DNA of 64,000 nucleotides from Mustelus asterias (lineage: Eukaryota), in the NCBI RefSeq assembly GCF_964213995.1, contig NW_027590302.1, positions 62,001 through 126,000 on the forward strand, given 5' to 3'. Of this stretch, positions 32,718 to 63,647 are shown piece after piece. The notes under the pieces are model-generated. The model worked only from the letters and a program-made list of their open reading frames with translations, ran no database searches and was not told the origin of the DNA. Within the stretch, counting starts at the first letter, position 1. Every line of letters begins with the position of its first letter. A program made the position numbers and the translations under genes.

Positions 32718-33974
32718 ATGTCTCCTGTTACGCTGTACTTATTCCTCACAGCGTCAGCTCTTTTAACCGGTAGGTTCACAAGTTATTCAATTCTGTGTTT
32801 CACATCTTTACCACACATTATATTCTGTTGAGCTCAATGGGCTCAATGCAAGGGGCGAGGGGTGGGTGATCGGGGAAATGGATTGATCCCAATTTCGAAA
32901 AGTCATTCGGATCTCGCTGGTCTCAAAACAGAACACTGTTTGTTGGGAGTTGGCACATTTACCCCAAGGAATGAGAGAGGAAGAGTTGGGCTGAGATTCA
33001 AACTCCTCTGGTGCCAGTGAATGTCTTTGCAAACGCCAGACTTTAAAACACAGAGAGTGAGCAGTTCCTGTTACAGTTACAGAGGAACTGATCTCGTTAG
33101 TAAGTGTGGAATGTTTATGATGGAAGTTTTATTCGATCACCACAAGCACCTTCCCGTTCCAGCGAATATACTGTGAAAAATATATTTCCGTTCAGTTGTC
33201 TGATTTGTCTTTGAGGTTATTATTGTGGGCGGTACGGTGACACAGTGGTTAGCGTTGCTTCCTCACAGCTCCAGGAAACTGGGTTCGATTCACGGTTTAG
33301 GTCACTGTCTGTGTGGAGTTTGCACGTTCTTCCCGTGTCTGCGTGAGTTTCCTCCGGGTGCTCTGGTTTCCTCCCATTCCAAAGATGTGCTAGTTAGTTG
33401 CATTGGCCATGCTAAGTTTGAGAGTTTGAGACCCTTTGTGCCCTGGGATACGTAGGTTAGATGGATTAGCAGGGTAAATATGTGGAGGTACGGGGATAGG
33501 GCCTCCGTAAGATTGTTGTCAGTGCAGACTCGATAAGTCGAATGGCCTCCTTCTGCACTGTCGTGACTTTATGACTTTGTTGTTCAACATGGCGGGCAGA
33601 TTCTGGGCGGAAACAGACAAGTCGCATTGTGTAAGTTAATATTTATTTGTACCCTTACAGGACATTCCCGAGAAGATTCTGTTACACAGCCACCGGCTGC
33701 AGTCACCGTCACTGAAGGAGATGATGTTAGGTTGTTCTGTAATTATACAACGTCAAGCAACCACATTTATCTATTCTGGTACCGTCAGTATCCCAGCGGG
33801 TCCATGGAGTATCTAGTGCAGACAAATAAATACACCGGGAACACAGACAGATCTTCAGAGTGCCGTTTTTCTGCGGAGCTGAAGGTGTCTAAAACAGAGC
33901 TGGCAGACTCCTAGTGTATCACTGCGCACTGAGACCCACAGAACTCACAGCTGGGCTGAACCTGTACAAAACTG
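32718..33974 (+). pseudogene. TCR alpha/delta-type V segment 1 (leader 32718-32769, V exon from 33661, degenerate RSS 33937-33974)
   Basis: Leader MSPVTLYLFLTASALLT|gt; V DSVTQPP..C..WYRQ..; FR3 deletion, frameshift and stop before YHCALR; cacagaa...acaaaact. Confidence 0.85.
33227..33570 (+). mobile_element. HE1/V-SINE-like SINE in the leader intron
   Basis: ggcggtacggtgacacagtggttagc...ggttcgattc...tgtggagtttgcacgttc. Confidence 0.85.
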
Positions 33975-34827
33975 TCAGAGCCTCACTCAACATAACAGAG
34001 CATTAGACAAACGTTGTGATCAGAGTGAGTCTTGTTGGCATCTTAAAATTATAATTCCAATACACTTTTTTATTATTAAATATATTACCAAACTAAAACA
34101 ATGGGGGCAGTTTAGAGAATGGGCATTAGAATATTTATAGAGTTTGATGTCCCAAACTGTTTCCCTGTCACTGTGGGAAACACGACAACCAATTTGGCAT
34201 CAGCGTGTCATTTCATTCAATAATATTGCAGCTTTCTGACTGTTTCAGTGATTGTGATTGGTGAACAGATATCAAGCAGGACATTTCTCCTACTCTTCTT
34301 GGAAACAGTGAACATGTGATACGGCACCTCCACCTGAGAGGAAAGACGGAAGATTTCACAGGTCATCGAGAGGCTGGCAGCTCTGACGGTGCAGCATTCC
34401 TTGAGCACTACAGTGTCCCTTCGGTAAATTCCCGGATTCCTATTCCTGCCAGACTGCCGATGTCCTCTGGAGTGGAAAGAATTTCTGAATAGACTGCAGA
34501 CAGAACCCGGGAAATCAGAGGAGGTGGTGAACATTCATTAACCCAATTCGGGAGACAAACGGACTGAACTAAAGAAAATGAAATTAAAAATAAACTTTAC
34601 TGGGACCGTGGAAGCATATGGACAATGAAGTTAATCTCTAGAAAGAAATTTGACTCGTAAACAGAAGGAAATATATTTATTGACAGCCTTTTACAGACTC
34701 CAGATATCCCAAAGCACTTTCTAACCCAAGGAAACTCATTTGTACTGTAGTCGCTGTGGTGATGTTAGAAACGTTATTAACACAGAAATCAGTGGGAATG
34801 TTTAATTCTCTGTCCAAAAGGGTTGCC

Positions 34828-35175
34828 ACAGTAAGAAGTTTAACAACACCAGGTTAAAGTCCAACAGGTTTATTTGGTAGCAAAAGCCACACAAGCTTTC
34901 GAGGCTCTGAGCCCCTTCTTCAGGTGAGTGGGAATTCTGTTCACAAACAGAACTTATAAGACACAGACTCAATTTACATGAATAATGGTTGGAATGCGAA
35001 TACTTACAACTAATCCAGTCTTTAAGAAACAAAACAATGGGAGTGGAGAGAGCATCAAGACAGGCTAAAAAGATGTGTATTGTCTCCAGACAAGACAGCC
35101 AGTGAAACTCTGCAGGTCCACGCAACTGTGGGAGTTACAAATAGTGTGACATAAATTCTGATTCTAGGATCGCAT
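34828..35175 (-). mobile_element. Penelope-like pLTR fragment with hammerhead core
   Basis: Minus strand cacCTGAAGAaggggctcagagcctcGAAAgcTTgtg. Confidence 0.65.
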
Positions 35176-35789
35176 GAAGGGTTGCTACACTGATCCTGGA
35201 GTAAAGACGTTGAGGAGTACAGATATTTTCCGATTACTTTCCGCTGAGCACTGTGCTCTCTCATCCCCACTGTATCCTTCCCAGTCTTTCCCACACACTG
35301 TCTCTGAGGTTAACACGAATCGATTGACGAGCCTCCGCTTAATGTGGTGCTCTCTCTCTCATCCCCACTTCATCTTTCCCAGTAACTCTTCCACACTGTC
35401 ACTGAGATTAACGACAAAGGAACGAAAAGTCGCGACACGGATCTAAGTATTTGAACTGCGTTCTCAACAATGATGTGTGCAGGCTTACACGTGTCCCCTT
35501 GTGTTCTGAAATCTGCGTCCTTGTTAATAAACCTCAGGTGCTGTATCTGTTCAATGCCATCTGTAGCTTTTTCTCCGTTTATTATTTTAAAGTTTATTGA
35601 TCATTGTCACAAGAAAGGTGACATTAATACTGCAATGAAGTGAATGTGAAATCCCCTAGTCGGGATAATGAGTAAAGCCAAAATTTACCGGTCGGGCAAC
35701 TTGCTGTGGTCGGTCTTTCAGTGACATGTTTCAGAACATTCAACGATTTAAATAGCAAGTAAATATTAGAAATGTTAAAGAAAAAAACA

Positions 35790-63110: not shown

Positions 63111-63138
63111 GCTTTTTGTATTGAGAGAAATTGCTGTG
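63111..63138 (-). promoter_or_regulatory. 12-bp spacer RSS 3' of the joined V-D-D
   Basis: cacagca, atttctctcaat (12 nt), acaaaaagc. Confidence 0.85.
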
Positions 63139-63468
63139 ATACCCGGTAATCACTACCACTGCTGTGTCTTGCACAGTAATAGTTGGCGGTGTCTTCAATC
63201 TTCAGATTGTTCATTGTCAAAGCGAAAAAGTTGTTTGAAGTGTCTTTGGACGCAGTAAATCGGCTCTGAAGGATTGGGGAGTACCGTTTATCCGATGGAG
63301 AATAGTAGTGAACCAACCACTCCAGCCCCTGTCCGGGAACCTGTCGGATCCAGTGCATGACGTAACGATCAAGATCGAAGCCGCTGGTTTTACAAGTCAG
63401 TCTCAGGGAGCCACCGGGACGCCCGCTCTCTGCTTCTGGCTGAGTCAAGATAACCTCCGACTGGACAC
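63139..63468 (-). CDS. IGHV: IgM VH exon, germline-joined to D sequence
   Basis: [66 protein letters not shown], followed directly by a 12-RSS. Confidence 0.93.
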
Positions 63469-63601
63469 CTGTGTAAATATATATTTAAAAAAACACGAGA
63501 ATTAATCCTGGTGAAATGATTCCTGTTTCTGGAACATGCCAGAGATAGACTAACAATGAGACAGTAACAGTGAGAGACTTGGACAATAAAAAACTACTCA
63601 C

Positions 63602-63647
63602 CGGATAAGAAAGTCAGCAACAAACTGAGAGAAATCGCCGACCTCAT
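63602..63647 (-). CDS. IGHV: IgM VH leader exon
   Basis: MRSAISLSLLLTFLS(G)|gtgag. Confidence 0.9.

Follow-up and report, generated by a model that had tools for sequence, protein, structure and literature searches.

The 64,000-nucleotide stretch of Mustelus asterias DNA analysed here, which we call the window (G000:C270:62001-126000, forward strand, in a genome of 3.68 Gb on 5,313 contigs), most probably holds a pre-joined IgM cluster that would rearrange only VDD to JH, accompanied by decayed TCR-type V segments as passengers, inside the shark IgH/TCR alpha-delta complex. This reading is built on the exons and recombination signals of the window, on two further copies of the same block, and on the organization of a 20.4-Mb scaffold (C71) that carries one of these copies.

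A pre-joined IgM cluster

The IgM cluster lies on the minus strand and has the layout of a shark IgM minicluster, in which a single V, D, D, J set precedes four C1-set exons; split paralogs share this layout. The leader exon (63602-63659), with a phase-1 GT donor and a second in-frame ATG at 63647, is open with V. It is followed by the VH exon pre-joined to D1 and D2 (V-DD, 63139-63468), an open frame recognized as V-set by Pfam, and by a 12-spacer signal (63111-63138, CACAGCA-12-ACAAAAAGC). A 23-spacer signal (62756-62794, plus strand, exact pattern match) precedes the JH segment LFGDWGKGTMVVVTV (62708-62755). The constant part comprises C-mu 1 (54224-54523, C1-set by Pfam), C-mu 2 (53704-54018), C-mu 3 (53028-53336) and C-mu 4 with the secretory tail (49804-50195, found by Pfam), and AATAAA occurs after C-mu 4 at 49776 and 49767. 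TM1 (46315-46433), in frame with C-mu 4, and TM2 (46169-46177, IK-stop) are spliced from a donor inside C-mu 4 at 49866. The secretory tail has an N-glycosylation site and a penultimate Cys, which we take to be the motifs of an IgM tail. In the sequence-only reading, all IgM exons were described as open with canonical splicing, and this was borne out: AG/GT borders were present at every exon, and both the secretory and the membrane form translate without stops.

Signals were judged by the heptamer/nonamer consensus and the 12/23 rule. Behind ..YYCAR, the VH exon continues into fused remnants of D1 and D2 and then into a D2-type 3' signal with a 12 spacer; the intervening signals are lost and the D2 3' 12-signal is kept, as in germline-joined VDD-J genes. 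The D1 core and the D2 3' heptamer match the split paralogs' own, which are arranged as V(23)-(12)D1(22)-(12)D2(12)-(23)J, and the V-DD state is identical in the copy on contig C128 and in short-read contigs. Because V-DD ends in a 12-signal, it can be joined under the 12/23 rule to its own JH and not to TCR D-delta or J-alpha/delta, whose signals (5' of D-delta, and at J-delta and J-alpha) likewise have 12 spacers. TCR V segments and JH both bear 23-signals and so cannot pair with each other. From the spacers, it can be inferred that the only productive nearby partner of V-DD is its own JH. A chimera donor would carry a 22- or 23-signal 3' of VH or D; here there is only the 12-signal after VDD, and by this measure the window VH is a predicted poor substrate for Ig-TCR chimeras.

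In trial joins, the reading frame was kept when J was trimmed by 0, 3, 6 or 9 bases, and the 6-base trim gives a joint via the TAT common to both ends. B cells would need a single RAG step, from VDD (12) to JH (23), in which this three-base TAT overlap would give an in-frame VDD-JH joint. The product would be an IgM, secreted or membrane-bound, whose CDR3 is largely fixed.

TCR-type V segments beside the cluster

Counted from the TM2 stop, four TCR-type V segments are located at distances of 2,622 to 13,451 bases. Segment A (43053-43547, minus strand) possesses a leader, a V exon and a 23-signal; the exon has a one-base frameshift close to its start. Segment B (39690-40186, plus strand) has the same three parts; its exon is interrupted by a stop and a frameshift, and the second Cys is replaced by Ser. 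Segment C (38803-39128, minus strand) retains a 23-signal, has no AG acceptor and is frameshifted near its start. Segment D (32718-33974, plus strand; leader 32718-32769, V exon 33661-33936) carries a frameshift and a stop near its end, and its signal is degenerate, with heptamer CACAGAA. The distances of 2.6-13.5 kb from TM2 given by the sequence-only reading thus stand, and of the four RSS it had reported, three are exact and the fourth is degenerate. Two points go beyond its account: all four segments are damaged, none combining an open frame, both Cys and splice sites, and a fifth TCR-type V is present as a 3' remnant at 41.0 kb (41002-41100, minus strand) with a 24-spacer signal.

The segments have the form of TCR V genes, with a split leader (in A, B and D), an exon end after the second Cys and a 23-signal. 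Exact CACAGTG-23-ACAAAAAC signals stand behind A, B and C; the window contains four matches to this pattern, the fourth being that of JH, against 0.02 expected (100 shuffles). P0116 is a V-J-C chain, and its constant part has human TCR delta chains as its first PDB matches; the V of A is 52% identical to the V of this chain and 31% identical to the VH of the window. A homolog search with A returned no longer homologs, and a near-length search gave solely unnamed Ig-like proteins of chondrichthyans (7 of 8 candidates). When 29 V rows were placed in a tree, assembled without named shark TRAV/TRDV or non-rearranging V domains, VH and VH-like segments formed a clade (100/99) that excludes A-D, and 12 of the 26 inner branches are open. 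The phylogeny proposed as a check on the segments thus puts A-D outside the VH clade, and their inner placement is weakly supported. We class A-D as of TCR alpha/delta type. Non-rearranging V domains were considered as well and rejected, the signals being placed exactly at the V ends.

The frameshift in A is common to the C71 copy, and short-read contigs cover the site without gaps; a read error was rejected on these grounds. The C128 copy has an intact A and an open D. Segmental duplication has probably carried the TCR V segments along as passengers, and they would be decaying members of a dispersed V alpha/delta array. An intact copy, such as A on C128, would be joined to D-delta or J-alpha of other units and not to a JH like that of the window.

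Three copies of one block

The IgM and TCR-V block is present in three assembly copies, on C270, C71 and C128. The common block spans about 160 kb (about 69-237 kb of C270), and the junction of IgM TM exons and TCR V is found on C71 at 99.2% and on C128 at 98.8% identity to the window, within single alignments of 24-29 kb. Each scaffold has its own substitutions. Beyond the common block, the flanks and the downstream V sets differ between copies, which suggests segmental duplication, and no long alignment past the block ends was found in the stretches fetched around the copies. The sequence comparison therefore suggests that the copies are segmental duplicates, although any one pair may be allelic.

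Several further features were recorded in and around the block. Window positions 34830-38466, in whose place the C71 copy has different sequence, contain two inverted reverse-transcriptase fragments, presumably LINE-like. Positions 4631-28477, which form the gap separating the two TCR V groups of C270, hold a pair of SRP RNA genes, several tRNA genes or pseudogenes and a match similar to U2. Contigs of runs X1, X2 and X3 lack a 745-base high-copy repeat at 43783-44527, and this repeat-skipping form is absent from all three assembled copies. At 157-159 kb of C270, about 32 kb upstream of VH, there is a broken segment resembling a supporting V-delta, with a 23-signal, which is matched in the C71 and C128 copies too.

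Two joining states of the same cluster

In the C71 copy, VDD is joined to JH out of frame, with loss of the 390 bases between them. VDD was not trimmed at its end, 6-7 bases are missing from JH, and no bases were added. A read error was rejected as the cause, the identical joint being present in X1 and X2. Depth at the C71-type joint was 19.1 in X1 and 25.2 in X2, that of the unjoined form 22.6 and 22.5, and that of the flanks common to both forms about 40-52 in X1 and X2 contigs; these runs represent one sample, possibly the assembled animal, and contig depth is not copy number. Polyclonal B cells contain many different junctions, each at low depth. A single exact non-productive joint at depth 19-25 makes such cells an unlikely source and a recent germline joint likely, and we regard the C71 VDDJ as a likely case of the latter on sequence grounds. 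The final VDD-to-J step would have been taken recently in a germ cell, out of frame, and would inactivate the copy.

Among 30 VH loci, derived from 45 matches after scoring the best 40 of 224 candidates with a query that favours joined forms, 15 were split and 10 were V-D(D)-joined with a free J (including the window and C128). The rest comprised two D2-J joined loci, two fully joined ones and one hybrid on contig C138, so that some pre-joined state was seen in 15 of the 30. Further pre-joined IgM clusters with different junctions are L030-L037, L042, L043 and L045 (eight V-D(D)-joined, two D2-J joined and one with in-frame VDDJ).

The surrounding IgH/TCR alpha-delta complex

A scan of the whole of C270 (493,613 bases) revealed a single IgM cluster and about a dozen TCR-type V segments, with no match to TCR D, J or C; the annotation of flanking contig sequence that the sequence-only reading had called for hence yielded no TCR D/J/C. 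As C270 has none of these, it is assigned to the complex by its homology to the C71 copy. On C71, at least 26 IgM CH4 matches (1.6-19.3 Mb) and at least 23 TCR V matches (6.5-17.4 Mb) are interleaved, both counts being lower bounds from the best 150 of 506 and 150 of 1,758 candidates scored. CH4 lies within 25 kb of a TCR V in 6 of the 26 cases, or in 4 of 26 with the matches of one search alone.

A D-delta-J-delta-C-delta unit lies about 180 kb upstream of the C71 copy and immediately follows a split IgM cluster; it contains a NAR-type V-D-J, a supporting V and two VH-like V, then D-delta (12/23), a pair of J-delta and C-delta. The labels NAR-TCR or NAR-type, supporting V-delta and VH-like are those we assume to apply to segments of this kind. 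A J-alpha array and an alpha-like TM exon are found on the same scaffold at 18.37-18.43 Mb. Within the loci L137-L156 (18.25-18.45 Mb), 16 twelve-spacer signals at 18.366-18.411 Mb mostly precede J motifs, and the alpha-like TM exon is at 18.432 Mb. No V or C-delta was detected in the 115 kb upstream of the J-alpha region, where the usual adjoining C-delta was not found. The Pfam profile PF09291 detected no TCR-alpha C in the genome, which, given the insensitivity of this profile, is not evidence of absence.

These sequence comparisons indicate that the window block is likely part of the interleaved IgH/TCR alpha-delta complex already known. The sequence-only reading had left the choice between a full IgM minilocus at the edge of or inside a TCR alpha/delta locus and a co-duplicated orphan cassette. 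Each is partly right: the block exists in three copies, and the C71 copy stands on a scaffold that has IgM clusters, TCR V segments, TCR-delta D-J-C units and the J-alpha array interleaved.

Multiple TCR-delta units and a hybrid cluster

A search with the P0116 constant region, in which all 70 candidates were scored, gave 19 open C-delta-type exons and 19 TM exons. Three of the C-delta/TM pairs are on C71 (at 7.138, 11.043 and 12.271 Mb), the others on 16 contigs, and a D-delta-like match occurs 13-22 kb upstream in 18 of the 19 C-delta copies. Nine copies that were compared represent eight distinct sequences, with 1-19 differences in 246-270 bases; part of the 19 will be second haplotypes.

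At L179 (217.7 kb of C138), an IgM VH-D1 is fused to D-delta and followed by two J-delta and C-delta. C138 is colinear with C71 at 7.04-7.15 Mb save for a 55-kb deletion, which runs from the D1 3' signal to the inside of D-delta and leaves the structure VH(23)-(12)D1/D-delta(23)-(12)J-delta-C-delta. This hybrid was seen once among the best 40 of 76 candidates scored. From its sequence, it appears that cis Ig-TCR joining happened at the C138 cluster of the complex. V-delta pre-joined to D-delta was present on four contigs, at L183 (C850), L186 (C436), L189 (C119) and L192 (C96); in each case it is a supporting V-delta that lies downstream of a NAR-type V-D and retains the D 3' 23-signal.

We tentatively propose, and rate at slightly below an even chance, that TCR-delta in this shark is organized as Ig-like miniclusters co-duplicated with IgM clusters (each with NAR-V-D-J, supporting V, VH-like V, D, J and C-delta), not as one translocon unit, and that the complex is still being rewritten by RAG in germ cells. 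The VDD-J and VDDJ copies of the window IgM, the pre-joins of V-delta to D-delta and an inherited C138 hybrid would all be products of such activity, the last being a snapshot of a VH-delta/TCR-mu-like origin. Among titles and abstract openings, where subscription journals are thinly covered and which are thus weak evidence of novelty, we found no multi-cluster TCR-delta in a shark, and two papers that bear on the question describe shark TCR as a translocon.

Alternative explanations

The sequence-only reading saw the cluster as a cis substrate for Ig-TCR mixing. If so, it would actively donate to chimeras, either VH onto C-delta or a TCR V onto JH-C-mu. A TCR V does lie 2.6 kb from C-mu, chimeric IgHV-TCR-delta chains have been reported from sharks (accessible parts of PMC12227049, PMC5931798 and PMC6795676), and C138 carries an IgM D1/D-delta joint. 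However, the signals forbid both routes, with 12-signals on VDD, 5' of D-delta and on J-delta and J-alpha alike, and 23-signals on both TCR V and JH. The inward D signals, including the 5' signals of the cluster's D segments, are lost, all four adjoining V are damaged, and C270 has no TCR D, J or C. The sole possible acceptor for VDD is the J of NAR-TCR with its 23-signal, one of which lies upstream near the C71 copy in the same orientation. We consider such a donor role unlikely and drop the claim of a cis substrate.

Slightly less probable still is that the C71 VDDJ is a somatic B-cell joint caught by the assembly and no germline allele or paralog. It resembles a normal RAG coding joint, it was seen in one sample (X3 and X12 do not cover the VDD-J interval), and the sequenced tissue may be lymphoid; one exact out-of-frame junction at a depth similar to that of the unjoined form speaks against it. 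The least probable alternative, which we regard as very unlikely, is a repeat-driven misassembly at the IgM/TCR-V junction. The interval is full of high-copy repeats, and short-read contigs aligned to 42.9-46.5 kb fail to bridge the repeat-rich junction at 43.5-46.2 kb. Yet the same junction recurs at about 99% identity on two further scaffolds, which makes misassembly unlikely; all three copies belong to one assembly, and each lies on a scaffold with its own substitutions. IgM TM exons are also found a few kb from TCR V at other clusters. We retain the reading of a pre-joined IgM cluster with passenger TCR V segments inside the complex.

Relation to known systems and significance

Flajnik et al. 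(2025; PMC12227049) describe linkage of all IgH isotypes to TCR alpha/delta, V exons of which are found between IgH clusters, and the same text points to earlier linkage work in elephant and nurse shark. In its Table S1, the great white shark has IgM genes that, over about 9 Mb, alternate with TCRa/dV and NARTCR V models, and the catshark list has an entry 'IgM (gj)'. The linkage that the sequence-only reading pointed out is not new, given this text and table; by itself, it is one more species-level example. The finding is mostly known, another example of a published Ig/TCR arrangement, resembling the elasmobranch antigen-receptor complex (AgRC) of that paper in its linkage of IgM miniclusters with TCR alpha/delta and in V exons between IgH clusters. 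It differs in that the paper describes TCR alpha/delta of the AgRC as a translocon, with a single TCR-delta constant model in the stingray list of Table S1 and another in that of the catshark, whereas 19 C-delta exon matches were obtained here, three of them on one scaffold. Signal spacers and V integrity, analysed here, are not treated in the accessible text.

Germline-joined shark Ig genes have been described, with joined and split genes up to 99% alike, as in nurse shark NS4 light chains (PMC2193156, in part), and partly joined shark IgH clusters are covered by reviews (excerpts of PMC5192425 and PMC6795676). Here, in contrast, two successive states of a heavy-chain cluster, VDD-J and VDDJ, are seen in copies that are about 99% identical, and one DNA sample contains both. 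Citations of chimeric IgHV-TCR-delta chains appear in excerpts of PMC5931798, PMC6795676 and PMC3457774. The C71 unit is similar to the IgHV-TCR-delta/TAILV/NAR-TCR system of nurse shark, in that VH-like V, NAR-V-D-J and supporting V-delta precede D-delta; unlike in nurse shark IgHV-TCR-delta trans-rearrangement, the window VH has no 23-signal for joining to D-delta.

What is added by the present analysis are the two joining states, the multi-copy TCR-delta units and the hybrid cluster. Signal spacers tell which clusters of the complex can and which cannot feed Ig-TCR chimeras, and the window cluster cannot, as predicted from its spacers. The near-identical VDD-J and VDDJ copies offer a case of RAG activity in germ cells that is testable by PCR and datable. 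That IgH-TCR linkage gives rise to VH-using TCR-delta genes is a model of long standing. If the multi-cluster TCR-delta and the C138 hybrid are germline, they would provide direct DNA evidence that such linkage leads to heritable VH-using TCR-delta genes.
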